A stretch of 63,973 nt of DNA, filler included, from Rhabdomonas costata (GCA_019059605.1; 30 parts of 30 records of this genome joined end to end with filler, not necessarily neighbours in it), one strand, 5' to 3'. Positions 8,654 to 42,233 are shown, counted from the first letter of the whole stretch. A program made the numbers and translations. Notes: generated by a model not told the origin, from the letters alone.

Positions 8654-10442
8654 ATGTCAGTCGAGGATCTGCTCAAGGACCCCTCTGGGCTTCCCCGGGA
8701 TGCGCTTCTGTCCCTTTTGGACAGACTCTTGGACCAAACCCAGGCATGCATGGAGAGAAGGAGAGATTAAGAGTGGGGCACATACCCCTCGTCGTGGTTC
8801 AAGAAGAAGCAGGTTAGACAATACTCTCAAGGGATGAACTGGAGTCCAACGTCGCACATCTACGTTCGTAACTTTCGTGTCAGCTGTGAGCACTCGTCTG
8901 CCTGGTTGAACATGTGAATCGTGGTTCCTCCAGGAATGGGGGGGGGGGAACTGCTTTGCGGGTGCCTGTCTCTCCTCGTATGCTGCAATGCCGCTGGTGT
9001 TCAAGACAAGCTGAACAAATGCATGCGCAGTGACCTCCCTCGCTTTATTTTCTGTCGTATTTCTTTCTGGCTCATGTGCAGCCCGTCGACGGAGAACTCG
9101 GAGCCGTGGACGCCGCCGCGGCTCGCCGGCTCGTGGATCTTGCACTGGGAAGCCTGTCGGATACGCAGGTACTCGTCACACATCCACCTTTTCACAGGTG
9201 GTCTGGTTTTTCCTCCACCCAACGGCCACTCAGATACGTGGTGCGTAAGGTACATGTTGCGTTGCAGGCAACCGTCCTGAAGCTCCCTTTGGGTGCAAAA
9301 AGTACAAGCGATATTCGAGGTGATGCAACAGTGGAGTAAGATGGCGCCACTTTTCCCGAAAATGCTGGCCGGATGAGGTGACAGGATTTTGGGTGGTGGG
9401 TATTTTTGCTCTTCTAGTGACACATGCGCGCCGCTCGGCATTACAGTGCAATTCTTCACAACATGCATCATGAAACAAACCCTGGTGGAAAAAAAACAGA
9501 ACCCTGGTGGGCTCTGCCTTGCCCACTTCCAACTTTCCACTGCCAGTTTCCATGGCTTCTCATACTCCCGACATTCATCGGTTCACCTGCCAGCTGTCCT
9601 TTGAACGGTTGCCCTTTATCCTCCAGGTCTGCGTGAGCGTGGTCAATCTTATCGCCCAGCTGCTGAGCTGTGGTGATAAAGCTCATGGGGCATTTGCCGA
9701 TGAAGGTCCGCTGCAGTCATGATTGCTTTGGTTACCTCTGCGCGAATAATGCTGGAAAGCTTAGCACACTGTCACCGCCACAAAGAACTTTCAGGGAAGT
9801 AATCGATGATCTTTCTAACGGTATACAGCGGTCCAGCAAGAGGTGCTTTCCAAGCTCCAGCCGCTAACGCTTTTTGATTCCAACCGCCGGTTTTAAGCTC
9901 ACTTGTCTCACGCTCTGCTTTGCATTTTAGGTGCACTCTTTCATAGAGCAGATGCGTGTTTTGATAAACGCGCCGGCGTCTCGTTGTGTGGCTCGGTGTG
10001 ACTCGTTTTTCCCCACTCGGACTCCCCGGACTCCCCTTCTCTCAGCTCGTTTAGGGGCACGTCAAACTTATGCTGCGGGGAAAGGTGCAGCATGAGACAA
10101 TGGGAGGAAAGGCAATGGCAGTCAGGGCCGCCGTGTGTGTGGGGTGGAGGGAGAACGGCCCTGTGATATCTTTCCCCAAAATTGTACAGCGATAAGACCT
10201 GAGCAGCTTTGAAACTTAGAGTAGGAGTGTGTTTTCATCATTTTGATTGTGGACCTTAAATCTTCCCACACTGATCGTGTTTCTGCGTCGCCGTCTGTTC
10301 TTTTGTGCCCTTTTCGTAGATGTCCTTCCGCAGCTTAAGGCGCTTTACGACGCCGCGCCCAAGATTGAGGTGCAGCCGCTGCTCAGCGTGGTGGAAGTGG
10401 TGCAGATGCTGTCTGAGGAGCCGTCTTCCAAGGAGGCCATAG
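8654..10442 (+). CDS. Unknown helical (ARM/HEAT-like) protein, 5' exons 8654-8743, 9082-9168, 9627-9672, 10320-10442
   Basis: Four exons join in frame with consistent phases (0,0,1); Leu-rich amphipathic segments; first intron needs a GC donor. Confidence 0.6.
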
Positions 10443-10701
10443 GTGCGTCTGGATAGCACACGCTCGTAACTTGCATGGCCAACACTCACTGTAGAGGTTG
10501 GTAAGAATATACCTCACGAACAATATTTTGTTTCGTAGACGCTTAGAACTCTCAACGTAGATCATCTCCAGAAGTGTTTACCAATTTGACCCCCAACCCC
10601 CNNNNNNNNNNNNNNNNNNNNNNNNNNNNNNNNNNNNNNNNNNNNTTAATTAATTAANNNNNNNNNNNNNNNNNNNNNNNNNNNNNNNNNNNNNNNNNNN
10701 N

Positions 10702-12741
10702 AACCATCACACATCAAGGCAGTACAGTCATGCAACATCCCTACATCCTTGCACCCCAGGAATGCAGCAAGGGTCAGGAATGCATCAAGGCACCCAAGAA
10801 TGCGTAGAGGGTGGGGGTGAGTGTCCCCAAGTCGAGGATGTCATAGAATCGGCATTTACCCTCAGCATAAAAGAAGGCATCAAGGTACGTAGCGATGGTC
10901 GGAAGGGCATCGCGTAGTAGAGGGCACCGCAGGTAGAAGATGAAGGCCTTAGCCATTCTTTACTCTCCCTATCCCCTACAGTCATGCTGATACCTTACAC
11001 CATACACCCCTAGCCTCACAGAATGCCTCAACTCACCAACCAAGAACACGAAAACAAGAAGGCCAAGAACCCCACTCCAACATCAGAAACACAAGCGTAG
11101 TAGAAGCACTGATAACACACAGAGACAGAAACACTGAAGGCATGAACCCCACCACGAAATCCTGACACCCTACGACCCAAGAACCCTCACAGCATGACAC
11201 ACAGAAGCAGAGTACACAGTAGGACATTGACACACAGAGAGACGTAAACCCTGAAGACGTAAAACCCACAGCCCCTCGAACCACCACACCCTCCAACCCC
11301 AGCACATCCACAGAGCCATGAACCAACGTAGCAGCAACACAACACGCAACAAGCAACACAACGGTAGCACGAACAACAGGAGCAAGAACATCGGACACAG
11401 AAGCGGATACGGCATGGTTAACGGATACGGCATGGTTGGAGAGACTGAGACGGACACCCTGACACCCTGACACCGTGAGACCTTGAGACCGTGATACCAT
11501 GAGCCCTTGAGACGGAGACTGAGAGCATGGTAGACCGACACAGAGAGCATGGTAGCAGAAGCCTACAGCAAGAACAGCAAGAACCAGACACCCTACAGAC
11601 TACGCTACACCTAACCCTACAGCTACAGCTACACACAGACATAGTAAGAAGAAGAACACACGTACGCGTAAGGAACCGGAGACCTGGATACACACTTGGG
11701 AGCACAAAGCCGGATAGGAAGGAGCATCGAGCACACACAGCAAACCCACAGCAGAAGGCAACACCACCCATAGAATCGGCTAGAGAGACAGAGACGCAAC
11801 GACTACGAACGCAAGCCCCACAGCAGCACCACAGCACACCAATAGCGATACCAATACACACGATGACGCAGCAACATAACCCACCAATGCACCCCTAGAC
11901 ACCACACACCACTCCACAAGTCCACCCAGACACAAGGCTACCATGACAGCAGCAGAGACCATAGCACACGCACCCAATCCATGCAATCCAACCCCAGCCA
12001 TGACCACCACCAAAGCACCACAACCCACCTAGGAACACAACGAAGCCATGAGCACACCTGACACACTACCCAAAGCACCCTACAACGAACCCAGCAACCA
12101 CGCACCGATCCCACACCCAAGCTTCAACCCAACGATGACCACCACCCCACACGCAACTTCCACCCCACTGCACCCAACACTCGACACCATGCACCACAGA
12201 AGCACGCTCAAACCCGCTTGTACCACCAACTACACAGAACCCAGACCACCCTCAGCATGCACACCACCCAAGCAACTCTGACCCACCTTGACACCCGCAG
12301 CAACCTTCGACACCGACACCCCACGCACCACCATCCCGAGCATCACCAAAGAAGCAGCATCCACCCAAAGCACCAACCATAGCAGCATCGTACCACAAGC
12401 CATCTGACACACCACAAGCAAACCAATACACGAAAGCAATACCGCAAGCACACCCAATGACACCAAGGCACCTTCAGACCTACCCTACGCAAAACCCCTC
12501 ACGTCAGCACCCACACCATCCACACCATCCACACCACCCTTCGAACCCACATGAGCACCTGTAGAAGCCATACCACCACTCTGCAACATCGACCCCACCT
12601 TCGTAACACCCTCCGCGGCACTGGACAGAAGAGCCGAAACCCCCAGCAGCGGACACTCCAACCCCTGAACACCACTTTGACCCACAGCAACACCGGAAGG
12701 CAACGTACCACAAGCAATCCCAGCACCACAAACGCATGCAC
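10702..12741. repeat. Strongly A/C-skewed low-complexity contig with short degenerate tandem repeats
   Basis: T is rare on the + strand; 8-mer array GACACCCT/GAGACCTT at about 11453-11516; (CCACACCAT)3 near 12511. Confidence 0.7.
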
Positions 12742-13014
12742 NNNNNNNNNNNNNNNNNNNNNNNNNNNNNNNNNNNNNNNNNNNNTTAATTAATTAANNN
12801 NNNNNNNNNNNNNNNNNNNNNNNNNNNNNNNNNNNNNNNNNGGGGGGGTGGGTTAATGGATACGTGTGGAGGCAGGAACTGACTTAAACCTTTTGCAATT
12901 TAACTTGAATAGGTCAGACGAAACATGATAGCACCTTCGAAATGACTTTATTGTATGTAAAGGGTTTGGTAAATTTTGCCAGTGCTCCCTGAATGGGATT
13001 TGTTTTCTTAGCAC

Positions 13015-14616
13015 CTGAAGACTGCCACTGGCTAAGCAATGGCTGGGATATGGGCGGACTAGAGGGACAGCAGTACTGCAGGGGCCAGCGACGTGGCGGC
13101 CGGAGCGGGCAGCTGGGGCTGGGCCTTAAACGACTTTTCAGATATGGAGAAGTTTTTTCCACTGGAACACCCAAAATTAACTGCATCCCACCAGTACTTC
13201 TTTCCGAACTTCATATGCGTTGTTCTGAAACCCACCCCAGTTCTGCAGATACATGCTGTCTGCCACAGCACCCCAGCTCTACCATGCTCCCATACTCCCC
13301 AACCCTAACCCCAGTGAACGTTCACAGAGCGTTGCTGCTGTTGAGGAGGCGGATGGGAAACGGATATAAGGCTAAGAAAATTGGCTTATAGAGAGCAAAG
13401 GTCGGAGACATACCACAACTCAACGGAGACCAAAGCGACCGTAACAAGGAGTAGTCCAATGCTTGCCAGCCCCCCGAGAAAGCGGTAGGTCTCCTGGTTG
13501 CTTGGCCAGCTTCCATTGGCGTTGGCCAGTGCCAGGGTCTCCACCACTGCGGGCGACGCACTCCCCACAACAAGGAGGTTTACAGGCAAAGTGTGGTCGG
13601 CCGACGCTCGGGCGCTGCGCTGCTCGGAGGTCAGCCAGCACAGCAGACTCAGCGCCAGGAGCGCGAGCCCGGAAAGCGCTCCCACACTGAGGTACCGGCG
13701 CCTGTCGACAAAAGGTTGAGATGAAAGGAAACATGGACAATCACATCGCGCATCCGCGTGTTTAACACAGGAGGTGAGGACAAATGGTCGAGCGATGATA
13801 TGCGAATCTCACAAATACCGTTAAAAGAGAGTCTAAAAGAGAAATCGATGCTGAGTTCACACGTCGAAGGTGTGAGATTTTTCTTTTGCAGTTTGTTGTG
13901 GGAAAGTAACACAATAGTTCTGACATTCAGTGTATGGTGGTATAAGGGCAGCTTTGTAATTAATAATCGTAACGAAGGATTCCGCAGCGGCTTAGTACAA
14001 TCAATCGGCTTCTGTACAGTCCAGTCCAGTCAAAGTCACCAGTAATTAACAATCTAAACCTAATCCTTAACGTACAATGTTCAAACTGCCGACCCATCCA
14101 TCGCCGCACTTTGCTCACACGCAAACAGAAAGGCTTAGGAGTCGAAGCCTATAACATGAAAGAGAACGTTAGAGTAAACCTCATCAGCCTTGCCTGGCAG
14201 TTCTCCGCCACAGCAGGGTTGGGAGGCAGAGGCTGCGGGGGAGACTTGCAAGGCGGTGGGGAGGCATGCGCTTCCGGGCTGTGTCGGGGGCTTCCAGGAC
14301 ACAGCCGGGCACATCCTCGCAGAGGAGATCGGGCACCTGAGATGATGGGGAGGGGGCACGACCCCACCCTCTGGAGGTCCAGCTCCTCCCCTCCTGAACC
14401 ACACTCAGAGATCTCACGCAGCTTGTTAGGGAACGCCCGAGGGACGCTGCGGCACCCGACTGGGATTGCCGTGAGCGCAGTGAGCTGGGGTGCAACGAAA
14501 AGACCACTGTGGAAGGACGCGCTGGTGGGCAGGATAGCCCGGGGGCATACGCTTGAGCCCCCTGCTGGAGAGGTCATGGGCGGGCTGGACGAGATTGCCT
14601 CTTTCGGGCAGGGGCA
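13015..14616 (-). CDS. Unknown membrane protein; exons about 14616-14180, 13701-13414, possibly 13124-13015
   Basis: Phase-2 GT-AG joins; two hydrophobic segments (GLALLALSLLCWL; LASIGLLLVTVALV). Confidence 0.45.
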
Positions 14617-17345
14617 CTGATTAAGCGAATAACAGGAGTAGCTCTTCTTGAAGGGAGAGAACAGCGTCAGACCTGCAGCGCGCAAGAATTAGGGCAACAT
14701 CGACTGAAAATGAGGCGGAGCACAAGAAAGCTCCTAAACAAAGTTAACCCACTGGTACAGGGAGGTCTTCCCACGCTCACCACACTTCGGAATCTTAAAA
14801 CTAATTCTCTCACGGTGCCAGCACCAACTGGAGAAACCCCGAATAACTGAAACACAGTTGATAATGACCCAACCCCNNNNNNNNNNNNNNNNNNNNNNNN
14901 NNNNNNNNNNNNNNNNNNNNTTAATTAATTAANNNNNNNNNNNNNNNNNNNNNNNNNNNNNNNNNNNNNNNNNNNNGGGTGTGTGTAGCAAAGAATTTCA
15001 ATGAATGAAGGCAGTTTATAAATGACGGAGACTGCGCCTACAGCGTTTTAGAATGATGTTGTCAACTCCACCCACAGCAAACCTGGCACCTGTATAACAA
15101 CCACGTCGACGAAAGCCTCGCTAAAGTGTCACAGAAGGCATCTTACATCCGAAGGCCATGAGTTAAGACAATACAAGGGGTAACAAATTTTTCATGAATC
15201 AGAGACATAGCATTCATTAACTTTCCGGCCACGCCTTGTGGCATAATAGTGGAGACCGCTATCCAATGGAAACTAAAGATGCCCACTTCTCAGCTACTGC
15301 AATGCCAGCAAGCACGCGCTCCATGTGCCCCGAGCCCATGATGCAACGTAAATCCATAACACTGCAGATGTTTTTGGTGCATTTTTAAGCTGCAAGGACG
15401 CCAACTTCGTCTCATACAGAGTCAAAAAGCAAGTATGCAGGCCAACTATGGTGGCAAGTTGGCTACCCGACAACAAGGACACATTCCATGTCCACACTAG
15501 AACACCCACCGGAAGCTGAATCATCGTGGTCAGCAAGGATCCAGTCGGAAGTTCTTTTTACAAGATCCGGAGACTTGCGGCTGGGTGTGCTGACACTCAA
15601 CAGAAGACCTACGCATCTCTGTCCGCAAACTCTCTGCCGCACACCTCACTGTCAGCCTTCAGTTTAAGCGAGGGCGCTGCAGATTCCTGGTAGTAGGCCT
15701 TACAACATGCCCGACTTCGCTTCGAGATTGAAATGAGCTGAATTTCATATTGAAGCTCAGTTTGAACATCTTTCTGGGATTCCAGAGCCAAAGTAAAGCC
15801 AATTGCTCGATTAGCATCTCAACAGAAGTTCCTGAAGTTTCTTGTACAATAGAAGCTGGCGACACCTGCGGAGGCTTGGGTGGTTAAAAAATAGCCACGT
15901 GGAATTACTGCAGACTTAAAAAGTGACTAAGAGTATGCAGCCGAAGGATGACTCGCGCGGGGAAAGCTGTCAGCGAAAGTGGCAGAGGCGGCATTGGGTG
16001 AGTGAGGGTGAGTGGATTTCCACTTTTTCTGGGAGATACAAAGTGGTCGGGCAGATTCCGGCGAAGTAAAATTTGCAGAAGTCGTAGCAGTATACTTCTG
16101 CGGAGAACTGCGAGCAATCTCATCCGATGAGAGCTTTTGATCCTTAGAAAATTGGTTTCGAGGACGTTGTAAAGGATCAGCCCGTGTAAGCCGAGTCGGT
16201 ATGGGCGTCGACATTCTTGGAGGGTGTCGACGTACCACCACGGGCAGGATGCTTAAGTAACGGGTAACCTACTGTCTCCAGCCTTGTCTTCTCCACGAAT
16301 GTGGCGGCAAATGGCCTGAAAGCGGAAAATGTCCCACCAGGGCTGTTTAAATGGCTTCGGAAGCGGAGGAGTATTACTGGGGCAATGCGCATTTCCGTGG
16401 TCCCACTGCGCTTTTCAAAGGCCTTCTCCTCAACTCGCGCTGCTGTACATGGACTTTGTGCCTCAACCCGCCGCTACACCCGGTTCAAGTGGATGACAAG
16501 GCGCACTCACTCAGGAACTAAAAAAGTGTCTTGCATCCTCTTGTCCCCGTTGCCGGTCACTGCCACAGTCCATGGCAAATAAGGCGCGTTTTGCCAGAAT
16601 AAACCGTGACAGGTGGTGACGGTTGGTTTTGTATTCGGCTAATCCAAACACACCCGCGGCTTTTACTTACTGGACTGCGATTCCCCGTGTCCCCCAAATG
16701 GAGCGGAGCGATCCAGCTCAATTGACTGGTGGCGAAGACCGTGCATTCTACTTCTATTCCATGTTTGAATGGATGGGCGCCCGCCATTAATGCCAAAGCG
16801 TCGCCTGTGTTTGGGTTTCTGTTAAGGACCCCGCTCCGCACGGGAATCCGCGGGGGCTGCTCCGCACGGCCCCCTGCCCATTCCGCATGGGCTTCACACC
16901 GGCGGCGGAAGGGAACCAGGAGCCAAGACGGGCTACTCGTCTTGGCGTGGCCGCCCCGGCCGGGTCCGGGAATCGAAGCCGCGACCTTGCAGCCACGAGC
17001 CCCACCCCACCNNNNNNNNNNNNNNNNNNNNNNNNNNNNNNNNNNNNNNNNNNNNTTAATTAATTAANNNNNNNNNNNNNNNNNNNNNNNNNNNNNNNNN
17101 NNNNNNNNNNNGGTTGGGGTGGATGGGCACTGCACACATCCTCACCCGAAACTCCCTGTGTCCAGCATGAACAGTTGCATGGACAACCCGCCGGCATCTC
17201 AACATCTGTGGAAGACAGGAAGCAGGGCAACACGCGGCATACCACTTCTTTGTGCGTGCGTGCGTGCGTGCGCGTGTGTGCATTCGGTTTCGTGGGAGTC
17301 GATGGATAACTCAATGCAAGGTTTCTGCTTGCGTGTTGATGCTAG

Positions 17346-17502
17346 GGTTTCTGCACTGGGACCCAGCTTTGAGGTTCAGTGCGGATGACGGTCTGCGGCA
17401 CGAGTGGGTCCTTCAGGGGGCGGCCGCGCTGCTGCCTCCCCCTCAGGCCTCCCGCCGGCCCGCTCCCCCTCGGGACTCCGCTCACGGGGCTCACAGAAGA
17501 AG
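17346..17502 (+). CDS. Protein kinase C-terminal exon (subdomain XI, DYRK/CMGC-like)
   Basis: FLHWDPALRFSADDGLRHEWV resembles L-x-WDP-x-x-R-x-T-x-x-x-AL-x-H-x-W; bounded by TAG| and AG|GT. Confidence 0.7.
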
Positions 17503-18609
17503 GTGCCTCGCCATCCCATCAGTGCCGCTAGCATGGAAATTGGTTGGTTTTAATTTTTGGAAATATTTTAATAATAAAATGGTTTTATAGCGGTGCAATA
17601 TAACTCCAACTGTCCGAAATTCTTCGGTGATGGAAAAAAATGGGGTTGGGTTGGTGGAGGAGTGAGTTTTTCAGGCGGCACGGTTTACTCCATTTTGCAC
17701 CTAGTTCTCCCCAAATAACCCTGCTTTCCCCTGAATGTTTTGGTCTATGTGTCTGGTATACCAGGGTATTGCATCAACAATATATCGAAGAATATTTTTT
17801 CTTACCGTGCATAATTATGTTTAAGGTGAATGCAACTGTGGTCTGATGAGGTGACCACGAAAAAATATGCACTTTTGCAGAGAGCGAGTCTGAGTGCGCG
17901 ATGGGTTTGTGTGAAAGAGTTCTAGGTAGAACGAGCAGGGAGTGTGGCGTGTGTGCATCGATGGGAATGGAGTATGTATGTCATTCGCCTTTTTCATTGT
18001 CATCATCACGTTTCAAGCCGTCAATTGAGTGATTACCGTTGTCAATCAGAATTAGCAGTGGTAATCAAAATTACAATTATCTGCGCACAACTACCTGGAC
18101 ATCGTAGTTTGAGTGCAGCTCAGTTGGATGCTTTGCGCTTTTTAACTGTTATTGGCTTACACCCTTATCGGTCACTGTTTTTCTTTGCGCCGCTTGCAGG
18201 CACCACCGTGAGGTGTCTGTGGGGGTTTCCTCAAAGTTTATGGAGTCCCACAACGCCACCGCCGACCAAGGTGCACTTCGCACACTTTTTTCAGCCCAAT
18301 ACGCAGAGTGCGGGTGGATTGATTGGAATAAACACAACAAACACGGACGGTCGAAGGTTACAGGGAATTCTTAAGTGGTATTTTCAGTTGCTCTGAATGC
18401 CTACACCCGAGAGAAATGGGAAACAATTGCATCAGGAATACCGGAGAAAACACAAACGCACGCTTTTTGGTTTTGGTGGGAGGAGAGGGGGTCGGAAGCT
18501 GTGATGTATCAAACCAAGGAAGGCTCAATATATATGTAAGCGAATTGTGGTCGAAATTCCAACTGAAAGTTATTTTGCGGTGACTTCAGGCTTCTGGCTG
18601 TTTTTCGGT

Positions 18610-20177: not shown

Positions 20178-20513
20178 ATGTCCGAAAAGAGCGGTGCGGG
20201 GTTGATGGCCGCCTCACGTGAAAAAGCGCACTGTAGGCCTTGCGCTGGGAAGAGTGCCGGCGGGGATGATCCTGCCACGAAGCACCACCTCAGCGCTCTT
20301 GAAGCGGCGCTGCAGTCTGGTCACCACGGCCGTATCCGGGAGGCTTTCGTTGACTTGGGGCTCCGGCTGCACCACCAGAACCGGAATTTAGAGGCCGTGC
20401 CGGTGTTCGGACAGTTGGTGGCATTCCTGAAGAACTCGGGTTTATCTTCCGCGGAAGACTACGTCGCACTATCCATAGCGTACGACATCCTGGCTGCTGT
20501 GTACAAGCAGCTG

Positions 20514-20548
<35 letters not shown>

Positions 20549-21088: not shown

Positions 21089-22155
21089 GTGGACATGTGT
21101 CTCTCTGCCTTCGATGGACCCCGTATGTACTTGCGCATCATCATCGTCATCATCTTTTTGCAGAGGCCGGCGGCTCAATTGAGAGGTTCGCAGACGGCGT
21201 TTACACCCACAGACCCAACCATGAAAAGCCAAGGAAGTCCAAAGAGTCGTCAGGGTTCCAAACCAAAAACCCCAAACACACCCACACNNNNNNNNNNNNN
21301 NNNNNNNNNNNNNNNNNNNNNNNNNNNNNNNTTAATTAATTAANNNNNNNNNNNNNNNNNNNNNNNNNNNNNNNNNNNNNNNNNNNNGGGTTTTGGTAGT
21401 TTCACTTGTCATACAAGTCATGTCGGATCTTTGGTGATTGGGAGCCACAGAAAAACGAATTGAAAAAACGGGCAAGAACTTTTTACAAGAAGGCAAATTC
21501 CATCACTGAAGGGCAAACTAGGGGGGAATAGATGCAGGAGGGTTCCTTGTACATAAGGTGCCTTCGATCACCTCCGCTGTGCTGGGGAAAGATTGACACA
21601 AGATTCATCTAAAATAAAGAAAAGAGGCGTCAAAGGGCGTAACGGGTGGGTACCGGCCTGAGGTTGCAAGGACCGGCCGCGGAGGCCTTGCTCGTTGGTC
21701 ACGGTGTAAAATCGCTGAAAAATTCCAGCATCGTTTTTTCTCCTCGGTTCTCAATTCTTTTCCATCAAACGCCTCACGTTTTGGATGAAAGAAAGCCATC
21801 ATCCTGTTGCGCTGTTTTTTTTGGGTGGGCCGTCTTCACGGGCTTCCAAGCTGACAGAGTACAATGCGAAGTGAGATTGAGGGTAGAGTATCATAAAACA
21901 ACCGAACGGAACAAAATTCATCCGAGGAACGAACTCGGAGACCCAATTATTATCAAGACGAACTTCTACGCTTAACTACTTTACCGTTTACGAGCCTCCC
22001 TTGGCCTGACTGTCCTGCTCCAGCATCCAGCGCACATTCTAAGGACAGGACACATGTGGGTTCTGGCCTGAGGGTGGAAGGACCGACCTCGGCGTTTCCG
22101 GAGCCCCGCTGTAGGTAGACGGCCCGACTTCGGTTTCCCCTCTAAACAAACTTAC

Positions 22156-22896
22156 AGGAACGAACGAGCTCCAGTAGTGGTGGGCTTGATCCCGGCAAGC
22201 GTGGACTGTGATTTTGGTAGGCACCAGGGCGGTTGAGAGCCAAGCTCAAGCTCGCCTCAAGCGAAAGCGACTCCCAGAAGCAGCAATCAGCCCTCGAATA
22301 GAGCGGGAAGGGGGTGCGCACCTCGTCGAAGTCCCACAGGGAGATGTTTACCGGGCCACACGGCTCGCGGACGAAGCCGTAGATCCCACCCCCTGTGGAG
22401 GTGAAGTGGATGTCGCTGCTGAACTCGGTATTGCGGAGCTGCGCGAACATGTGGGGCAGGAACCCCCTCGGGGCCATCGGCAGCAGCCCCGTGCGGAAGG
22501 AGAACTTGTTGATCTGCACCAGGGCCTCCACCCTGAAGATAGGACGGTACCGAGACGGCAAATCAGCACCGGGAAGAGAAAAAGCCAAGAGAAATTTCAG
22601 CACCTACTTCCGCCCAGGAAACAACGCCGGTCGATCACAGGATCGGACACAACACAGGAATAGTACCACATTGGATGGACCTGAAGGCGGGCTGCCTGCC
22701 CTTCCCGTTTTTTGGAGTAAGTGGAGCGAACGGAGACCAGAATGGGGATGAATTCCCATTCCCCTTTCTTAACTGGATGCACACTGCAACGAGGAGTCGT
22801 TCCCAAAGCAAAGGGGCACAGGCATACTGCACGAGGTGGTGCTCAATGAGGCTACGAGTCAGCGGCAGGATCTGCGACTGGAAGCTCTGTCCCATG
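22156..22896 (-). CDS. Unknown protein; exons 22896-22828, 22532-22322, 22205-22156
   Basis: High-GC3 frames joined in phase by GT-AG introns (HHLVQ-VEALVQINKF...WDFDE-STLAGIK). Confidence 0.6.
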
Positions 22897-23294: not shown

Positions 23295-23421
23295 GGATGT
23301 CGCTGCTGAACTCGGTATTGCGGAGCTGCGCGAACATGTGGGGCAGGAACCCCCTCGGGGCCATCGGCAGCAGCCCCGTGCGGAAGGAGAACTTGTTGAT
23401 CTGCACCAGGGCCTCCACCCT
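23295..23421 (-). repeat. Exact 127-bp truncated duplicate of exon sequence 22408-22534
   Basis: Base-for-base identity; the copy stops mid-exon next to a (CA)n tract. Confidence 0.92.
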
Positions 23422-27788: not shown

Positions 27789-29835
27789 CACGATGCCCAG
27801 CATTGTATAAAAGGGCTATATGTTTATAGCCTTTTACGTAGTTGGGGCATCGTCAAAAACAATGGGCATCGTTATGTGCATCGTGGAAATTGTCATGGGC
27901 ATCGTTTGGGCATCGTGACAAATCGAATTCTTGTCATAAGAAAACGTGATTTTGCAGAAAATTAGGGTTGAGTGATGACTGTATTTTTCTCATTATGCAT
28001 ATTTTGTGTGGTTTTTTGCCTTCATTACCGCTTTTTCTAAGGTTTTCTTACAGGGCCTTTCCTGAGCATTTTTCGTCATCTATGGTGATTACCTCTTTCC
28101 GTCGGGCGTTGGCTGCTTTCCTTATATTGAGCGGTACTTCGTACAGAACCATCTCCGCCAAGTGTGGCATCTCTCTCGGCTCCGTTGCCCTCATTAAAAA
28201 GAAGCTTTTGCAAAAATCACCTGTTACCAGCTTCCCGAAGCCAGCTGGTCGCCACCGTAAGCTTGGGGCTCGAGAGAGGCGCCTGCTCATCCGAGCAGTG
28301 GGGAAAATGAGTGATGACTGTATTTTTCTCATTATGCATATTTTGTGTGGTTTTTTGCCTTCATTACCGCTTTTTCTAAGGTTTTCTTACAGGGCCTTTC
28401 CTGAGCATTTTTCGTCATCTATGGTGATTACCTCTTTCCGTCGGGCGTTGGCTGCTTTCCTTATATTGAGCGGTACTTCGTACAGAACCATCTCCGCCAA
28501 GTGTGGCATCTCTCTCGGCTCCGTTGCCCTCATTAAAAAGAAGCTTTTGCAAAAACCACCTGTTACCAGCTTCCCGAAGCCAGCTGGTCGCCACCGTAAG
28601 CTTGGGGCTCGAGAGAGGCGCCTGCTCATCCGAGCAGTGGGGAAAATGAGGAAAATGAATGTAAATTTTTCGGTTCGCCAACTGGCGAAAGAATGCGGCC
28701 TGCTGTCATGCGTCTCGCTGTCCACCCTATATCGGGAAATGCATCGAGGTGGTCTGCAGTGGAGCAATTTGCGCAGGAAAGGAATTCTATCCGCTCAAGA
28801 CCGAAAAAAGCGCCTCGCTTGGTGCCAAAAGCACAAGCATCTCCCAGCTTCGTTTTGGGAAAACGTCGGTCTTTACCTGGATTGCGTGAGCTTTGTGCAC
28901 AAAACGAGGCCAAAAGAATCAGGATGTGTCACGAAATCAAAGGCGTGGCTCAAAAAATCTGAAAAGCTTTCTGTGACTGCCAGGGGTCGCCACGAGCACG
29001 AATCCAAGTCAAAGGTTCTTCACCTCGTTGTTGCTATCTCTTATGGTTCTGGGCTCATGGTGTGCCAGCCTTATGAAGGCATGTCTGGGGCGTTCTTTGC
29101 CACGTTTTGCAAACGGGTTCTCCCAGCGGCGCTTCGGAATGCTCCAAAGCCCTGGACAATACTCCAGGATAATGACCCCAGCCAATCCAGCGCCGCAGCT
29201 CAGAGAGCCTTGCAGAGGATTGGTGTCTCGAGGCATGGTTTTTATGCGTTTGCCATGTGTATAACAGTCTCAGTCATTTCGCACTGCTTATGTTCCATGC
29301 AAAGCACAACTATGCTCATGATGTTGCGCTGTCAACACCTATTTTTGCATAACATTGCATTTGAAACAAATTAATCACTCGATGGAGGTATAATCTGGTT
29401 TTTTCTGGTTTTTTTATACAGAATTTTAATTCCGGCACGCTCACCGGACTTAAACCCAATTGAGAACATCTTCAACAACGCGAAAAGAGACGTCACCGAG
29501 GAGGCCATTTACAACAACATAACCGTGGAGAACTTCGATGAATTTACGGCTCGCGTTATGCGAGCTTTGTGGCGTTCCGCAGAACTCCACGGTGACAAGA
29601 CAATTTCCTCAATCCCAAAGCGAATCCGCGAGGTGATCCGCATGAAAGGCGGTCGCAGCTCTTACTGAACTGCAAAGTCTTGCTCTTGATTATATATGAC
29701 TGCTGCTTTCTGGGGCTTCTGTTTGTACCACCCGCCAAAATCTTTACCGTATTCTTCGAACCGAAAATCATGTTGTCTGTTGGTTCAGACGACAAACCGG
29801 ACTGAAAAATCATCGTGTTGTCTCCATTCTGACCT
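27789..29835 (+). mobile_element. Tc1/mariner (IS630-Tc1, DD34E) DNA transposon; true termini not resolved
   Basis: Transposase CDS; GGGCATCGT repeats and a hairpin at the left end; internal 339-bp tandem duplication. Confidence 0.92.
28421..29668 (+). CDS. Tc1-like transposase; exons 28421-29232 and 29422-29668 (upstream in-frame duplicate ATG at 28082)
   Basis: HTH region, GRHRKL (GRPR-like) linker, RLAWC, LYLD, ILQDND, SPDLNPIEN, C-terminal KGGRSSY; splicing gives exactly 34 residues between D and E. Confidence 0.92.
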
Positions 29836-33381: not shown

Positions 33382-33759
33382 TCAGATCTTCACATTGGCC
33401 AGGCTCTCCAGCACCCCCACCACCGCGGAGTTGTCCTTCTCTCCCATCCCATTGGCCACCATGGCCTGAAAAAGCTGTGCTGCGGCCGCGGTGCCGGGCA
33501 GGGGTACCCCACACTCCCGTGCGGACTCCATCACAATGGCCAAGTCCTTGGCCTGCATCGAGGCCTTGAACCCCGGCTCGCGGTTGCCCTCGAACAGCCG
33601 CGGAGGTTTCACGTCCAGGGTCCAGCACTGCGCCGCGCCGCCCTTTACCGCCTCAATCACCTTGGCGGGGTCCACCCCGCTCTTCTTCGAGAACACCAGC
33701 ATCTCCCCCATGGCCACCATTTGCGCGGCAACCATGATCTGGTTGGCCGCCTTGCACAC
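33382..33759 (-). CDS. garR: Beta-hydroxyacid dehydrogenase family, 2-hydroxy-3-oxopropionate (tartronate semialdehyde) reductase-like, last exon
   Basis: CKAANQIMVA (catalytic Lys), SGVDPAKVIEAVKGGAA, PGFKASMQAKDL, DNSAV; TAG| acceptor and stop codon. Confidence 0.8.
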   Translation of the reverse strand: MCKAANQIMVAAQMVAMGEMLVFSKKSGVDPAKVIEAVKGGAAQCWTLDVKPPRLFEGNREPGFKASMQAKDLAIVMESARECGVPLPGTAAAAQLFQAMVANGMGEKDNSAVVGVLESLANVKI

Positions 33760-34652
33760 CTACTCGAACCCCCTCCCCCACGACCACACACACACACACG
33801 CAAGGGGTCGCGCGCGCGTCAGAGAGACCATGACACAAACTCACCCTTCTCACCTTCTCAGGCTCCCGGGGCAGCCTGGGCATTTCCAAGTTTTAACGAC
33901 GAAGACACTCCTTTTGTTTCTTCTGGAGGGTTCTTCTGCAGCACTCGTTCTCCCCATTCTTCCGGCTTTCGGACCTGTGGCACCCGTCGAGAGTCACGGC
34001 AGAAAAAAGTGAGTGACTCTGGCTCGGAAGCTCCTGTTTTCGCCTGCACTTGGAGCAAGCATTCAGGTGCACTTTTTATCAGACTGCATCGGACACACCA
34101 CCCNNNNNNNNNNNNNNNNNNNNNNNNNNNNNNNNNNNNNNNNNNNNTTAATTAATTAANNNNNNNNNNNNNNNNNNNNNNNNNNNNNNNNNNNNNNNNN
34201 NNNGTGTTGGGGGCTGCAGGGTACACACGCCGAGACCAACACTCCAAAAAGAAAACACGGCAGGCGGGAGAGGGGCAAGGTGACGCTCTCTCTAAGGACC
34301 AGCACGAAGAAATGCAAACCTCGACGGAAAAAAAAAGCACGGGAGCGCAGGGGGGCGGAGGAATTACAGTGCAGCACCGATGAGCAGAAAACAGCGGGCA
34401 AGGGGCACACATCACTTTCCCCCTGGATCGGGAAAAAGCGGCCCCGCCCAGGACTGATAAAAAATAAAAGGATGTGAGCGACAGTGCGAGGGTGCAACAA
34501 GCCGTTACGCTGCAACGCACAGCAGCAGCGCACTGCTGCGGGTTGCGAGCAGGGGATCCATCCGGTGACAGAAGACAGACCCGTCTCAGACAACCACGTC
34601 ACACCACAGCTAGGCTCTGGTGCTACAGGTGGCGTGGTGATGTGAGTTGGCC

Positions 34653-35964
34653 TCAGCCGGTGCTGGGAAACCTTCTCCTCACTTCGGCAGCCAGCGCGGC
34701 GTGCCGCGCAGGGTCCTCAGCAATCAAGTCCAGAGCGGCTTGTATAGACCACACTGACAGGGGTCTCATATAGCACAGCGCTCTGAAACACCACCCAAAG
34801 ACCGAGTGACCGAGCCAACGAACGGCACTCTTCAGTTAACGCAAGTCGCAGAAAAACAAACAACGTGTCTAGTACTGGAGTGGTCCAGTCAACCGAATCC
34901 GCAACATCAGAGCCGGCTCAGGTGTCGGGACGGATGATGGATATGGGGGGAGGGTCAGGGGCGCAAAGTTGGCCTACTCCCATTTTCCAGACTCCTTCCT
35001 AAACCTCCCTTAGTTGTGTAGCTCGGGGAAAAAGCTCGGGTGTCGGCCTTACTCTCCCTCTTAGCGAAAGCGAAACCACACCAGATTGCCAATGCGGTCA
35101 ATTTTCGCGCGCACAATGCGAAGCGGGGGCACAGAAAGTACCGGAAATTTCCGTTGGCCAGCCAAGCCTCTGGAGTGGAAAACCACAGCCCGAAGGAGAC
35201 GTAGGTGCCCTCATAAACACCCTGCAAAAGCGAAAAATTCACAGAATACTCCATGGAGAGCCGATACTCTCCGATATTCTGGTCGCGACCGCACAATGCA
35301 ATTGATCACAAAAAGTCAGACGAGCCTTGTGAGCCACAATGAGTGTCAGCCTGAGGTGCATCCGTTCGCGACGCAGCTTCAGAAGGATGCAAACTTCAAC
35401 GGAAAGTCTGCAGCTTTTTCCCTCGCTGTTCGTCATGGGCGACAGCAAATAGTGAGCTGATGGAAGAGGGCTACCGAATCCTGGTCCCACACCGTGGACA
35501 GGATGGAGAAGCGGACACACAGAATTCCGCCACCACGCCAGAAAATCAGGCAAACTCCCAAACTTCCTATCAGGCTCATCAACACTTCCGAGCACAAGCG
35601 GCGGCAAAAGGATGGGACACGTGCTACTAAAGTGAGCATCACACGAATACAGTGTTTGTTTTTGTGTGCGGAAATAATCGTCGCCGTTCTGCGGATTGTT
35701 GTCACCCTTGCAACTTGCAAGTCTTGCAGTAAAGACACACTACCAACAGCCCACTCATGGGCCGCAGCAACCGAACTGTCACTCCACACCACTCTGAGCC
35801 CCTCTGACCCACATTCGTCTCCATCCAACCGAAATGACACCGAAGGCCATTAAACGCAAAGAGCATGCGGACGCAATCCGCACCCGCGCAGTGTTCCAAG
35901 CCTCCTCGACCAGTCCTTCCATTAGCATTCCCGCGGCGATCATGTAGGTCGTTCCGGTCCACAC
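34653..35964 (-). CDS. GBA2: Non-lysosomal glucosylceramidase (GH116), last three exons 35964-35884, 35221-35142, 34782-34653
   Basis: VWTGTTY, GVYE...GLWFSTPEAW, R-ALCYMRPLSVWSIQ; GT-AG introns in phase. Confidence 0.92.
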
Positions 35965-37446
35965 CTGTGAGTCCCCAACAAAGCATCAGAGCATGGGCTG
36001 CGTTGTGTCAGCAGCTGCGGGCACATATTAGCCTCTAAATTTAGGAAATCGAAATTGGATCTCTTTAGAACATTTAAAGCAACAATGAGAAAGTCGTTTC
36101 TGGCACACCGGTGCCAGCCTACAGTTCTCTTATCAGTATGCAGGCCTGCAAAGGGCCTAATAGGGCCCTTGCAAGCCTGTGTGAAGGCAGAAAGGGCTCA
36201 GAAATACTCCAAAATGGCCCTGAAATGGCTCAAAANNNNNNNNNNNNNNNNNNNNNNNNNNNNNNNNNNNNNNNNNNNNTTAATTAATTAANNNNNNNNN
36301 NNNNNNNNNNNNNNNNNNNNNNNNNNNNNNNNNNNGGGGTGTGGTGAGGTAATTATGCAGGTACGCGTAGGCCAACACAAGAGACCCAAATTAAAGCGCA
36401 CATACGAACTAACACAAAGTTCGACTACTATACAAGAACACGGAACCAAAAATAGGCAGTAGAATAACCCGTCGATCACGATCCTGCGCATCACAAGTCA
36501 TGCGCTACGACACAATATTCGCCTCGGGACTGCAGTTCACTCCCGCAACGGAGGCCTTTATTTGGCCACTAAATGCCCAATGGAGTTAGGGATGGAGTTA
36601 GGGAGGTAGGCCAACAACTGGCCAAAAATAAACGACAACAAAAAGTCCTGCCGCTCCCCTCTCCCTGCGACCTGCACGGCGGCAGCCTGAGGTGGGTGGG
36701 CTTCCGTGGGCTGCACGCTGGTCTGAAAAGCACGGAGAGGGAGAGGGAGGCAGCGCAGCCTGTGAGTAGTCAGCTGCTGTGTAAGAGTGGTCGGCGCGTG
36801 TTAGCAAACTGCGATATCTTCCACTGCGGGCTGTCCTAGAGCCACTGTTTCAGTTTCGTGGGACTGTTTCGGGGGACGCATATGTTAGTATGCGATGCGA
36901 TCGTTGCGTCGGCAGAAGAAACATTTCTGTCACCGTTTTGCCAGGCAAAGACGCAAAAATTGTTGATTGTGGTATGACAAAATACAACCAACCAGCAAGC
37001 CAGCAAGTTCAAGCACTGCTCGGGCACATACTTCTGATGTCTTAATTGGTGTGCTTACGTCTCTCTCGGAGAACGCACATACGTTTTCGTGCACATACAA
37101 TTCCTAACCCCCGCTGGAAAATCCCGGAGGCACCACCAACTCGGGCCTCATATAATTCAGAGAGACTCAACCCCATGGGCGTTTCAACAGGGAAGAGCAA
37201 ACAGAATCGAGAAGGACACGGGCAAATAATTAGGGCACGCGAAGGAAGTAGACAGCCAAGAAAAAACCTTGCCCTGGTTGCCCCGACAATTGAACGCAAC
37301 AGCTGTGCGGCGTTTCCCTTTTGTGTTTGGGCCACAGGATGCAAAAATTCGCAGGGGAACGTACAAGACCAAACATCCTGCTGCAAAGCGATAATATTTA
37401 CAACGGTCATATAGGGTCCAAACCAAACGCCGATCCCAACCTCAGC

Positions 37447-38058
37447 TCACACCTTTTCCTCGAGCTGATCGTACACCAGCACGTAATCGTCCTTGCGCTC
37501 CTTGGTCCACTTTTGTGGGTCGAAGACTAGAAAAGAACCCTTTTGCGTTGGAGGTGGGGGGAGTTTGTTGCACTTCATTTCCTTTAAGTCCTTCTTTTCA
37601 TCTCTTCATTTCATGTCCGTCCCTTTGGACTAAATCGTTTGCTCTCAATTTCGCTTTACTTAAATCTCAACCAGAGCTGCTCCCAGGACACAGGGCTCGC
37701 TCTGGCAGATTTTATGGACGACGCTCGGACTCCGATGCTCCGGAAGAAGGCCTGCACTGCACTGGGAAACTTTTGCAGAAATTAAAACAACCCCTGCCCT
37801 TCGCCCTTCCCAAAGGCTGTCTGCCCAGTTCTCTATGAATTCCTCTTTTTGACCACTCCTCCTCCTTCCACGGCTGCCAGACAGCAGGTATGGGACCTCC
37901 CACGGTGTGTGTACGTGCACGGTGTAACCATGTTGGGTGCGCTGGAGTGCGGGAGCCATGCCTTCTCGTACTGCTCCGTTTTAACTGTGGGCTCCGTGTT
38001 GGGGGCACGGGTGAACCACAGCTTCTTCTCCTTGTGAAACCTCCAATCGCGGTTGTAC
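37447..38058 (-). CDS. CNOT2: CCR4-NOT subunit NOT2 (NOT-box), last exons 38058-37962 and 37539-37447
   Basis: YNRDWRFHKEKKLWFTR...YEK-GSFLVFDP.KW...Y..LE; joined by a GC-AG intron. Confidence 0.9.
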
Positions 38059-41000
38059 CTTGAAGGAGATGAGCGGGAGAAATCCTCCAAGGAAAACTCC
38101 GCAACGAAGGAATATACCGAAGCAGGAAAAGGGACATGCAAGAAAAGCGCGCCTGGGGCATCAGCAGGCATTGAATAGAAACAAATATAAATAGAGACAC
38201 TAAATAGAGACAAATATTCGGTGCATTAAACCGGGGGAGCAACCCAAGACAACCTGCTACTTCAGTTATACGTACCCGCGGTGTCCCCCGTACCTTTGGA
38301 ACCTGTGCAGCTTCGATGAAACCCCCTCGAAGAGTCCTGGCGCCTCAAGAGAAGGCGGCAGAACAACACNNNNNNNNNNNNNNNNNNNNNNNNNNNNNNN
38401 NNNNNNNNNNNNNTTAATTAATTAANNNNNNNNNNNNNNNNNNNNNNNNNNNNNNNNNNNNNNNNNNNNGTGTTTGTTTAAGCTTCAAGACAAAAATCTG
38501 GAATTTCCGAATTACAAAGAAATGCGGCTAATTTTTTCCGTAATAGATGAAAGATTTTTTGCAGCGTTTTGGACCAAGTTTCAAATTTTGCGTGCGACTG
38601 GAGATTTTGCTCTGTTTGCAAATGGAATCATTGCAACGAATTAGACTTTTAGCAATTGGTACATTTTACGAGTACGCTGAGAAAAAGATTTTTACTTCGA
38701 CGTAGGACTACAGTTGCATGGAGTCTGTAGAACTCAAAAATTATAAGCGGTTATTTTTGCAGTTAACACGAGCATTTCATCACATGTCAAAATAGTTTGG
38801 CAAGTACTCGGGTCAAAAAACGCTCAGTTGCAGTATCTGTTTGTAGTGGTGTTGAATGTGGATATACAAGCCAAGGTAATGGCGAACGAGCCACAGGAAT
38901 TCGACGAGGCACTGTGGAAGACCTGGGATTACTCTATTAGACGAGACAATCACCACAAATCATTGGCAAAGTTCCATCGTCGTTGTTGCAGTGGTAACAG
39001 AGTTGGCAGGTTTTTGTATTTTCTGATTTTTGTTAGCAGTACGCAAAGTAAGTCTCAGTTGGCGCACTGTTGATTGCAATCTTTTCGAACACAAAAGATC
39101 TTGCCACTATGCTCCATGATTGCAAGAAAATCGTACTAAAAACTTGCGCGATATTCTTGCTGTCTTGGACTGAACACTTCTGATAATACGGAGAATCTTT
39201 GACGAATGTCACAATACCTCATCAACTCATTTAAAAACAATGAAAAAACACTGCATATTGTTTACTCACAATGCTTCTCTGCGGTACACTGTAAATGACC
39301 ACATCTTTCAAAAATAACTCTCATCTAGATCAACTTGTGAGATGAAACTAGAACAAACGTACTACTTTCTCCGTCAGTGACAGTCAGAATCTTGGACTTT
39401 GTAAGAATCATAATCACCTTGAACATACACAATACATGCCCTTCCCTCACCGATGTGTACACAGGTCAGACGAAAAATTTCCGTTTCACAGTAACCTAGA
39501 TCAGGTAATTGTTTCAACTGGAAAAATGAGTGCCTGATTTAAATTGTTTTTGACAAACCCCACGTACCAGTTGACGATTACTGTGAATTTGAGAACTGTT
39601 GCAAAGTATTGAAGTCCACTACGGATTTGTTATTCATCAGAACTCCGCAATGTTCTGCTTTCGCATAATTGTTATACTTTGCCATCCCCATCTCCAAATA
39701 TGCACAGAAATATTTCAAAAGTTTCACACTAAACAAGCGGCTTCATTCTTCATATTGATCTCGTAAGTCTTCATGTTCAAGTTCGATTCGTGTTGGTCTA
39801 CTTGTAAGTTCTTTTCTCCACCAAAGTTTCCTCGGAGAACGCTCTTGAGATAGTCATGGTACAAAGTCGAACTCTTCACACAACTGGGCACCTTTTTTTT
39901 CGCCGCTTCTAGTTTCCTACTGCCTGCGGCACTCCAAATCGTCAAAAACGGCTTCTCTGCTAGACTTCTCTGTTGGTTTTTGTTCGCTTGCCTTCCTCCG
40001 TCAGAATAGCCTGAAATCTTCTGAAAACTCAGCTTTATCTTTTGGCAGCCATTCCCTTTGCATCCTGGTGTCTCTTTTGCTCGGCTTTTTGCCCAAAATG
40101 CGCCTTTTTGACTGCTGGTGATGCTGCTGCTGGCTCGTTTGCCTCTATTTTGCTCTCTGCTTTTTGTCCCTTCTTGTCCCTGTTTCCATTTCTCTCCGCT
40201 AAGGCCCCCCTTGTACCAGTAAATCGTTCCAAAACCGTAAATGTCTTGTTTCACCCAACCCATCCCATAAAAAAGTATACTTTTCATGTTTAATCCGTCC
40301 CAAGGGCGCCAAATGGGGGACAAGATTCTGGCGGCAAGATGCGAGAGCGGTAAGAATGCCCAGGGGGTCGTTTCCAATCCAACGCAGCAGAATTGGCAGT
40401 GCACCGAAAATAATTGCTCAGACTACGAGGGATTTCACCCTCTCACCCCTCCACCTGCTCTTGCCCAGTTTTTGGCAACACATTTTGCGCGCACACCCCA
40501 ACCNNNNNNNNNNNNNNNNNNNNNNNNNNNNNNNNNNNNNNNNNNNNTTAATTAATTAANNNNNNNNNNNNNNNNNNNNNNNNNNNNNNNNNNNNNNNNN
40601 NNNGTGTTGGGTGTGTGTGGTTGGGTTGTGGTTTTCAAAAAGGGTCATATCGAAACTGGTGACGTACACATTTCTGATGGTGTGAGAGGGCAAACGAAAC
40701 AAATTCGGTTGACGAGGTTTGTGGATGCGTCACAAGTTCGCAGAATGAACTCACAAACACGCTAGTAAGCTTCAACAAAAAAAGCAGAGCACGATGTGCT
40801 GGGTGCCAAACGTTTTCTTTGCCCCACTAATGATGAAGATAACCATATCCCCAAAACAAAACCGGGGAGATACCCACTTTACCGACTCTTAGTTCTAAGG
40901 TGGCACCGGCAAACATGTGTGAAATCATGCATACCTCTATATCTTAGGCCCTTATCAAAAGTGAGAAGCGAAAAACTAAGGCTAATGCAGATCGGTAAAA

Positions 41001-41282
41001 TTAAAATCGTTAATCGTTAAAATAAACCTCGGCATGCTCCAGAAAAGAAAACCTGATTTTAGGTAGTTCCAATGCATAACAAGAGACTATGCTGACATGG
41101 TTAACAAAAGACGCCTTTTTAACAATCCCAAAAACCCCCCTGTGAGTCCAAAACTATCGCTTTTTGGTATCACACTTCTCACTTTGAAGTGGCAGGGGCA
41201 ATATCACATTGCGTGCAAAACGACCACTCGGTGAGCTGCACTCATGGCACCCATCCACACCCATCCACGTCCCCTTACATAC

Positions 41283-42233
41283 CGTTGTATTGGTATTGGA
41301 TCAGGCAGGTGAAGGTCTCCAGCAGGAGCTTCACCAAGGCAATGTTGCGCGGACCCAGCCCAGGCTTAGCCAGGGCCCGCGGGCTGGACAGGACCTCAAA
41401 CAGGCTTACCAGCTTCGTGCACGACAGCAGGCTGGCCACAACAAAAACAGCAATCAAAGAAAACAATGCAGGCATCTATTTATTCCGCTCTCACACTCCG
41501 TGCACAAGGCATGGGCGGAGGTCCTTTATGCCTCGATTGGGTTTTCGAATGCTCTCTCACCACTTTGGAAGCTTCCCGGGGTGAGGATCGCCGCTCTGCT
41601 ACTGGGTGGAAGGTGTTGGGAAACCTCCCCCGCAGTTCACGGAAGCTCTAACCCTCTGCGCTCTCCCGGTCTTCGCATTTCGCTAGGTGGCCTTTCTTCT
41701 GCCTCTTCTTCTGCCGTGGGATCCTCAGGTCTTCTTCTTCTCGCCCTATCATGGCGCTTTCCCTGGCCCTCGTCGCAAGAGCACGGGACTTCGGCACAAA
41801 TTGGATCCTTATCTGCTGCTCCCTGCGGTCTTTGTGCGCACGCACACACACACACACACAGGCACACACACAGGCACACACACACTTGGTGCCTTTGCCC
41901 AAGGTGAAATTTCCTGGTGAGGACTCCAGGTCCATTTCCCCCGTAATCGAAATGTTTTGGGACCCCCCCCCCAATGATTCAGTATCATCCATATCAGATG
42001 TCAATGTCAAGGGGCAGCCAAATTGGGTGCAGGGTATAAGGAGATAGACCGATGAGGAGGCAGGGGTGGGCGATGGATCCAAAAGAATGGTGGATCGTCA
42101 TGCCTGAGGGACTTGCAATACGGTGCGGCGTTGCAGATTGTCGTGAGCCAGGACTCGTACAGCGGCCGCAGCCAGGGCTTGTTGGCCACCATGCACTGGT
42201 GCAGCGCGATGACAAGCAGATCCATGTGGTTCC
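41283..42233 (-). CDS. HID1: HID1 (Dymeclin/HID1 family) internal exons 42233-42104 and 41431-41283
   Basis: HMDLLVIALH...LRPLYESWLTTICNAAPYCKSLS...KL...LLETF..LIQYQYNG parallels HID1 DLLIVVFH...LLTIVVNVSPYLKSLS...LLEVFNNIIQYQFDG. Confidence 0.88.
41838..41942 (-). repeat. Dispersed repeat family, copy C with (TG)n tail, inside the HID1 intron
   Basis: Reverse complement GGGGGAAATGGACCTGGAGTCCTCACCAG...GCACCAAG(TG)n aligns with 5959-6037. Confidence 0.75.

Follow-up and report, generated by a model that had tools for sequence, protein, structure and literature searches.

Four probable GC-AG introns with an AG↓GCATG donor in the euglenid Rhabdomonas costata

Why should four genes in one genome each carry an intron that begins with GC, and always in the same context, AG↓GCATG (the arrow marks the splice boundary)? 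We addressed this question computationally in a 63,973-base stretch of DNA from Rhabdomonas costata (GCA_019059605.1), called the window below. The window is a size-sorted set of 30 contigs of near-equal size (2,032-2,062 bases each, ~2.03 kb), separated by linkers of 44 N, TTAATTAATTAA and another 44 N, as at 2036-2135 and 8467-8566. Because the pieces were joined artificially, apparent neighbours in the window are unlinked in the genome. A preliminary description had placed the four introns in a single span, 8741-42105; they lie instead on four separate ~2 kb contigs (pieces 5, 14, 18 and 20) and not in one genomic region. The sites themselves were described correctly: AG↓GCATG is read at all four, with G-C as the first intron bases at 8744 and 29233 on the plus strand and at 37961 and 42103 on the minus strand. 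The window has an overall GC content of ~50%, rising to 70-88% at the third codon positions of secure exons.

From the sequence, we regard all four introns that start with GC as real or very probably real, and we think it probable that they belong to the ordinary U2-type (“conventional”) spliceosomal introns of a euglenid, with GC-AG borders. They are as follows:

37540..37961, minus strand: GC-AG intron in a gene for a NOT2/CNOT2 C-terminal domain, 422 nucleotides (nt); donor aag↓GCATGGCT, acceptor CAAAAG↓ggt
41432..42103, minus strand: GC-AG intron in a HID1 gene, 672 nt; donor cag↓GCATGACG, acceptor GGCCAG↓cct, phase 2
29233..29421, plus strand: GC-AG intron in a Tc1/mariner DD34E transposase gene, 189 nt; donor gag↓GCATGGTT, acceptor ATACAG↓aat, T-rich 3' end
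8744..9081, plus strand: probable GC-AG intron after the first coding exon of a helical protein, 338 nt; donor cag↓GCATGCAT, acceptor GTGCAG↓ccc

Proteins joined across the GC-AG junctions

The predicted junctions in NOT2, HID1 and the transposase restore conserved proteins, either with no insertion or deletion or with canonical spacing, so that three of the sites have protein evidence in their favour. In NOT2, matches of individual open reading frames (ORFs) to the Pfam family NOT2_3_5_C cover positions 70-102 before the donor and 97-126 after the acceptor. The upstream exon ends in ...TEQYEK and the downstream exon starts with GSFLVFDPQKW, placing K on profile position 101 and G on 102. Solved structures sharpen this junction: in human CNOT2 (PDB 4c0f_A), ...KTNTYERG aligns to ...KTEQYEK plus the next residue, so that YER-G corresponds to the spliced YEK-G, and in yeast Not2 (PDB 4by6_B), ERGSYVFFDPQRW aligns to QKGSFLVFDPQKW, with ERGSY opposite KGSF.

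The two HID1 exons match positions 458-502 and 495-549 of the Pfam family Hid1, with a short overlap between the two ranges. The junction codon AG↓C yields ...PYCKSL-S-LLSCTKL, and profile continuity is good to about one position only; we found no solved HID1 structure with which to sharpen the junction. The same intron was also selected by an exon-chaining script that used no splice-site model. In the transposase, the Pfam family DDE_3 is matched at positions 16-102 and then 111-139 across the junction, alongside a match to HTH_Tnp_Tc3_2. By direct count, the GC-AG junction leaves 34 residues between the catalytic D and E, the spacing that is the hallmark naming the Tc1 family. At 8744, the site is the sole donor-like sequence ahead of the stop codon and was also picked by a script assisted by position weight matrices. 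The downstream exon is open and rich in GC at third codon positions (GC3) in two frames, leaving the frame ambiguous. The 8744 intron restores a frame without a homolog and is plausible only; the proposal of four GC-AG introns thus stands with protein backing for three and as a plausible prediction for the fourth.

The Tc1/mariner element itself spans 27789-29835, with a GGGCATCGT-like motif occurring several times near its 5' end and CACGATG/CATCGTG at its two ends. Within it, the helix-turn-helix region of the transposon N-terminus is present twice, as an exact 300-nt direct repeat (27969-28268 and 28308-28607). This could be a rearranged transposon copy, or an amplification or assembly chimera.

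Could these junctions be gene-model artefacts, with nearby GT donors truly used, or with pseudogenes at some of the sites, above all the transposon copy and the 8744 gene? The preliminary description had stated that no in-frame GT alternative exists for the three conserved sites. This is wrong as stated: within ±45 nt we found 12 in-frame GT-AG pairs for NOT2, 4 for HID1 and 8 for the transposase (0 for 8744). The aberrant repeat in the transposon or its assembly, the overlapping HID1 profile ranges and the lack of homology at 8744 also speak for an artefact. Every alternative GT-AG pair, however, gains or loses at least one codon within a conserved stretch. For NOT2, using another donor with the same acceptor would change the protein by -8 or +11 codons and break the contiguous YER-G of CNOT2, while a pair with the acceptor moved by +30 nt nets +1 codon, replaces the conserved GSFLVFDPQK and likewise breaks YER-G. 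In the transposase, the alternatives would destroy the 34-residue D-E spacing. Moreover, G stands at -1 in just 3 of 9 distinct alternative GT donors, compared with all 19 donors that we reconstructed in the window. We therefore consider an artefact of this kind improbable.

Frequency and sequence of the GC donors

To set the GC donors against GT donors from the same DNA, we use a comparison set of introns rebuilt in every recognisable gene, comprising 19 donors (15 GT and 4 GC). Ten of these (7 GT and 3 GC) form a best-supported subset, in which a profile or homolog can be followed from one exon into the next, and eight more GT donors have one-sided or frame-based support. GC accounts for 4/19 donors overall and for 3/10 in the best-supported subset. 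In humans and other metazoans, GC-AG introns make up ~1% (PMC3167603), and in the euglenid Euglena gracilis, 659 GC-AG introns stand against 11,527 GT-AG introns, or 5.4% of conventional introns (Gao et al., BMC Genomics 2024, PMC11170887). At a rate of 1%, the chance of at least four GC donors is 3e-5 for n=19 and 4e-4 for n=35, the latter being close to the intron count of the preliminary description; at the E. gracilis rate, the corresponding values are 0.017 and 0.12. The proposal that GC-AG introns are far commoner here than ~1% is thus upheld: their share is clearly above 1% and marginally above 5.4%, with an exact value that is uncertain since it rests on four sites.

G occupies position -1 in all 19 donors, and in 15 of them the exon ends in AG; 9 of 12 listed acceptors are followed by G (manual count). 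Downstream of the boundary, the 15 GT donors vary: at +3 we count A 6, G 6, C 2 and T 1; at +4, T 8, C 5, A 1 and G 1; and at +5, G 7, T 5, A 2 and C 1. Their preference is thus for R at +3 followed by T and G, which is compatible with the GTGTG donor that pairs with U1 in E. gracilis (PMC11170887). The GC donors read GCATGG, GCATGA or GCATGC, and ATG at +3 to +5 is found in 4/4 of them versus 3/15 GT donors (GTATG; Fisher one-sided p=0.009). GC donors in this set therefore do show a stricter downstream motif, as had been suggested. Of the accompanying idea of an AG↓GYATG optimum, the departure from the textbook donor holds, but the GT donors in the window do not have this consensus.

The heptamer AGGCATG occurs 18 times in the window on both strands, compared with 10.3 expected from a Markov model and 7.7 from composition. 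As a separate observation, the textbook donor AGGTAAG is found 0 times in the window against 2.7-7.1 expected, and AGGTGAG is depleted (6 versus a Markov estimate of 12.5).

A further way to obtain such a pattern is by T-to-C errors at donor position +2, arising from PCR (polymerase chain reaction)-based whole-genome amplification or from assembly. The contigs apparently derive from amplified DNA: the R. costata draft, as described by its authors, was made from sorted cells with Sigma WGA4 amplification at a coverage of 10-20x (PMC8219788). The same source gives 51.63% GC, an N50 of 1,194, a longest contig of 8,093 and 36,105 contigs >1 kb for the draft (PMC8219788). Against this, errors would have to strike four times independently, at one position of one motif, among ~19 donors; and since GTATG is present in just 3/15 GT donors, the GC donors are not miscopies of a common GT form. 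Such errors are hardly a credible source of the four GC donors.

The contig ends carry a mark of their own. Read inward, 42 of 60 open with 8-32 bases of G and T only (e.g. 40604-40635 and 21258-21287; manual count), 2 ends run on into longer G/T-only sequence, and 0 open with C and A only. We take these stretches to be leftovers of the degenerate “self-inert” primers of a PCR-based whole-genome amplification kit; they should be trimmed before contig ends are analysed.

The GT-AG introns that were compared include the following, all but the donor at 58949 belonging to the best-supported subset:

45094..45712, plus strand: intron 1 of an alpha/beta-hydrolase gene; donor cag↓GTCCACCA; in tblastn with euglenid homologs, the exon ends ...YERQ and the next starts DLAAVV
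45878..46350, plus strand: intron 2 of the alpha/beta-hydrolase gene; donor cag↓GTCATGGG; tblastn continuity at residues 180-182 of P0196-P0198
54468..54560, minus strand: in-frame intron of a gene for a PstS-like phosphate-binding protein, 93 nt; donor aag↓GTATACTT
58446..58878, plus strand: intron of a cold-shock-domain gene; donor cgg↓GTGTTACA; Pfam CSD 2-22 then 23-50
58949, plus strand: second GT donor of the cold-shock-domain gene; aag↓GTATGCCA
63391..63751, minus strand: intron 1 of eIF4E; donor aag↓GTGTGTAT; Pfam IF4E 2-35 then 36-67
62526..63295, minus strand: intron 2 of eIF4E; donor gag↓GTTTGTCT; Pfam IF4E 36-67 then 67-108
3047..3766, minus strand: script-predicted intron of a plasma-membrane Ca-ATPase-like gene; donor cag↓GTGTCCTT; alignment to PMCA2 (PDB 9gsd_A)

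For the PstS-like gene, a local hidden Markov model built from 57 homologs aligns residues 40-195 and 231-392, with 35 residues against 3 profile positions in between. The whole gene (53682-55145, minus strand) matches PBP_like_2 with E=5e-26 and has, by eye only, a signal-like N-terminus and a hydrophobic C-terminus. Its closest relatives are bacterial-type, at about 30% (at most 33%) identity over long stretches, and the gene has the look of an old acquisition from bacteria, with the intron gained later. In the Ca-ATPase-like gene, the upstream ORF aligns weakly (E=0.35) to PMCA2 up to residue 661, and the downstream ORF, read-through residues before the acceptor included, aligns to residues 656-693 with E=3e-8, setting DPIRDE on DPVRPE at ~662. 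Two more GT introns predicted in this gene (2683-2959 and 2228-2613) presumably belong to it, judging by the family.

For two genes, we found no clear donor-acceptor pair leading to the next exon, though homologs continue: the hydrolase after ...GDHNSERP (46633-46904, plus strand) and the cold-shock-domain gene after ...QEGEK (58950-59707, plus strand). These gaps may be nonconventional introns, or the missing exons may lie past the contig end. Downstream of eIF4E, a possible fifth GC donor (61991) was dropped, as it has no IF4E match.

Elsewhere in the window, a NAD_binding_11 domain of the 3-hydroxyisobutyrate dehydrogenase type (33385-33759, minus strand; E=2e-37) starts directly after an AG↓G acceptor, and its upstream exon was looked for on the same contig and not found. 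An ORF at 50981-51169 (plus strand) carries what we take to be the signature of P4-type (flippase) ATPases; a Pfam scan of this fragment gave no match. A word-indexed protein search with an ATPase fragment gave no match. The best match of a hexosaminidase ORF in a protein search has 45% identity. An exact 127-nt direct repeat (22408-22534 and 23295-23421), with one copy at the very contig end, misled intron prediction on its own contig and probably arose during assembly or amplification. Over the window, an Rfam scan gave no match, and hence no U1 or U6 small nuclear RNA; a tRNA scan with ARAGORN gave nothing; and the 3' part of the R. costata spliced leader had no match.

Conventional or nonconventional introns

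Euglenid nuclear genes carry conventional introns with GT/C-AG borders alongside nonconventional introns with other borders (PMC3935182, PMC12501133). The four GC introns could thus belong to the nonconventional or “intermediate” introns, removed independently of the spliceosome, with their GC-AG look produced by short direct repeats that let the boundaries slide. Since AG closes the exon as well as the intron, all four can indeed be slid by 2-3 nt, and register -2 puts C-A at +4,+5 in each of them. In E. gracilis, tubA intron 5 is documented as a nonconventional intron with a GC-AG reading (PMC3935182).

We compared the introns with what is described of each class. The genetically defined nonconventional signature, 5'-N3-CDG...CH'G-N5-6↓R (PMC12501133), was found in 0 of 14 complete introns, and in 0 of the 4 GC introns, when every allowed sliding register was tried. 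A weaker nonconventional model, CA(+4,+5)...TG(-7,-6) (PMC3935182), fits HID1 alone among the four, the other three having no TG at -7,-6. Pairing between the first and last 30 nt, estimated crudely with 200 shuffles, is absent in three of the four (z=+0.35, -0.15 and +0.85), while 8744 gives z=-2.0. A nonconventional intron should have no GT/C-AG border in any register, but each of the four can be read in a GC-AG register, and for NOT2, HID1 and the transposase this register restores the conserved frame. The AG↓G...AG context is the same as in the GT introns, and the R. costata paper lists just seven putative nonconventional introns (PMC8219788). A nonconventional origin of the four thus appears unlikely to us.

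U12-type introns have the extended donor consensus [AG]TATCCTT, which none of the four GC introns resembles (GCATGG, GCATGA, GCATGC). We conclude from these comparisons that the four are best read as conventional introns, because the nonconventional signature is absent and because they share the exonic AG and the G after the acceptor AG with the GT introns.

Several observations weigh against the reading of all four as conventional GC-AG introns. No Pfam family matched the 8744 gene, which leaves that intron without homology backing. Since the introns can slide, sequence alone cannot fix their register or the machinery that removes them, and HID1 in register -2 matches the CA...TG model (PMC3935182). 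In homology-based gene models, sense-strand AGGCATG sites stand unused inside both hydrolase introns (45258 and 45993) and in the transposase exon (29079); the motif is therefore insufficient, and context beyond the heptamer must decide donor use. Of 17 scored AGGCATG sites, 2 reached an upstream coding score of 8 or more, the same share as at all AGGCNNN control sites. Without splice-site models, ab initio chaining of exons by their GC3 codon bias had too little power; with such models it recovered 13 of 15 training donors, and we did not use it as a census. When this script was run with neutral G+N donors, its 40 calls comprised GT 18, GC 10, GG 6 and GA 6. GG and GA decoys were thus called as often as new GC donors, so GC calls beyond the four known sites carry no weight. 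The uniformity of GCATG may also be in part an effect of how the GC donors were recognised in the preliminary description. Finally, one gene carries the assignment of the DNA to a euglenid.

That gene is the alpha/beta-hydrolase. In an exhaustive protein search with its exon 3, the four top representative clusters have 53-55% identity and all others at most 46%. The four are Anisonema acinus, Ploeotia sp., Entosiphon sulcatum and a cluster holding Euglena mutabilis; the next relatives are a diplonemid, jakobids and Euglena longa. Anisonema and Rhabdomonas both belong to the class Anisonemea. ESM Atlas returned bacterial hydrolase clusters only. By sequence similarity, then, the affinity of this gene is with euglenids.

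Comparison with known systems and a model of U1 pairing

The nearest system for comparison is E. gracilis, likewise a member of Euglenida. GC-AG introns are treated there as a spliceosomal variant of GT-AG introns, their share is well over 1%, and G stands at +5; indeed, only G5 is described as prominent in them (PMC11170887). Unlike in E. gracilis, A at +3 and T at +4 are also present in all four GC donors here, and the host is a non-photosynthetic osmotroph. The share of GC-AG introns is possibly higher than the 5.4% of E. gracilis, at 4/19 by our count (p=0.017) or 4/~35 by that of the preliminary description (p=0.12).

R. costata has itself been surveyed: its introns are divided into conventional ones, defined as GT(GC)/AG, and nonconventional ones, with 29 complete GT/AG introns in six genes and, besides these, seven putative nonconventional introns (Soukal et al., Sci Rep 2021, PMC8219788). 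The main text of that paper gives no GC-AG count or motif; its mapped introns are in Supplementary Tables S2-S6, which may include the junctions described here (PMC8219788). The first interpretation of the four introns had overlooked this euglenid context, in which conventional GT/C-AG introns are an accepted class.

Outside euglenids, high GC-AG shares are reported for Aureococcus anophagefferens (39.6%), Micromonas pusilla (22.2%) and Chlorella (7.7%) (PMC3033335) and for Emiliania huxleyi (56%; PMC4028052). As in R. costata, GC donors in these lineages are frequent, at 10-50x the usual rate, with an apparently normal major spliceosome. Their GC content is higher, however (65-70%, against ~50% in the window), and composition is held partly responsible for the effect. 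The putative 5' end of U1 in Aureococcus and Micromonas pusilla equals the consensus (PMC3033335), so that an unusual tolerance of GC donors need not mean the altered U1 recognition that the preliminary description had proposed.

In Symbiodiniaceae, GC/GA-AG introns amount to 25-74% (PMC11453091). The window resembles these dinoflagellates in its moderate GC content, the G after the acceptor AG and the frequency of GC donors. We found no support for a dinoflagellate-type GC/GA-AG system here: a spliced-leader relic had 0 matches, the best relatives are euglenid, and GA calls by the script equal those of the GG decoy (6 vs 6). With animals, R. costata would share the tolerance of a GC donor where the rest of the site compensates. 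The consensus of animal GC donors is GCAAGT-like, whereas the donors here read GCATG, which would reflect a different U1 register.

What could hold the GC donors to one motif while GT donors vary? In E. gracilis, the GT donor consensus is GTGTG, and all five bases are stated to pair with its own U1, with one G-U wobble (PMC11170887). By analogy, the 5' end of U1 in euglenids would pair with a donor of the GU(G/A)UG type instead of GUAAGU. If the wobble falls where +3 is G, pairing with GUAUG would be perfect, and replacing U by C at +2 would cost one base pair. GC donors would then stay functional only if they are otherwise Watson-Crick paired, with A, U and G at +3 to +5 and an exon that ends in AG. 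A requirement for such full complementarity would make all GC donors AG↓GCAUG while GT donors vary. On this analogy, the compensation rule known for GC donors, set in the euglenid register, accounts for the motif with no further change in the machinery. U at +4 in place of A does imply a 5' end of U1 other than the textbook one, and this has already been published for E. gracilis (PMC11170887).

Raised GC-AG use and a non-textbook donor consensus are thus already on record for Euglena, and the four introns open no new question: they are a species-level detail within a group known for several percent of GC-AG introns, rather than a splicing system of a new kind. Two points may be novel, how strictly GCATG is kept and a share possibly above that of E. 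gracilis; both rest on four sites. A stronger reading is that GC donors make up 10-20% of conventional introns in R. costata, several-fold the E. gracilis share, as a sharp AG↓GCAUG-only subclass that perfectly pairs with a euglenid-type U1. We hold this to be possible but rather doubtful; if true, it would offer a natural system for the rules of U1/U6 pairing, in a divergent spliceosome that works beside a non-spliceosomal route.

For annotation, our findings mean that gene finders for euglenids must allow GC donors, or conserved genes such as NOT2 and HID1 here will break. Euglenids run two systems of intron removal, and sorting out the non-GT introns that are spliceosomal helps to draw the boundary between them. 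A strict GCAUG rule would supply a simple, testable criterion for doing so, and an indirect readout of the 5' end of U1.

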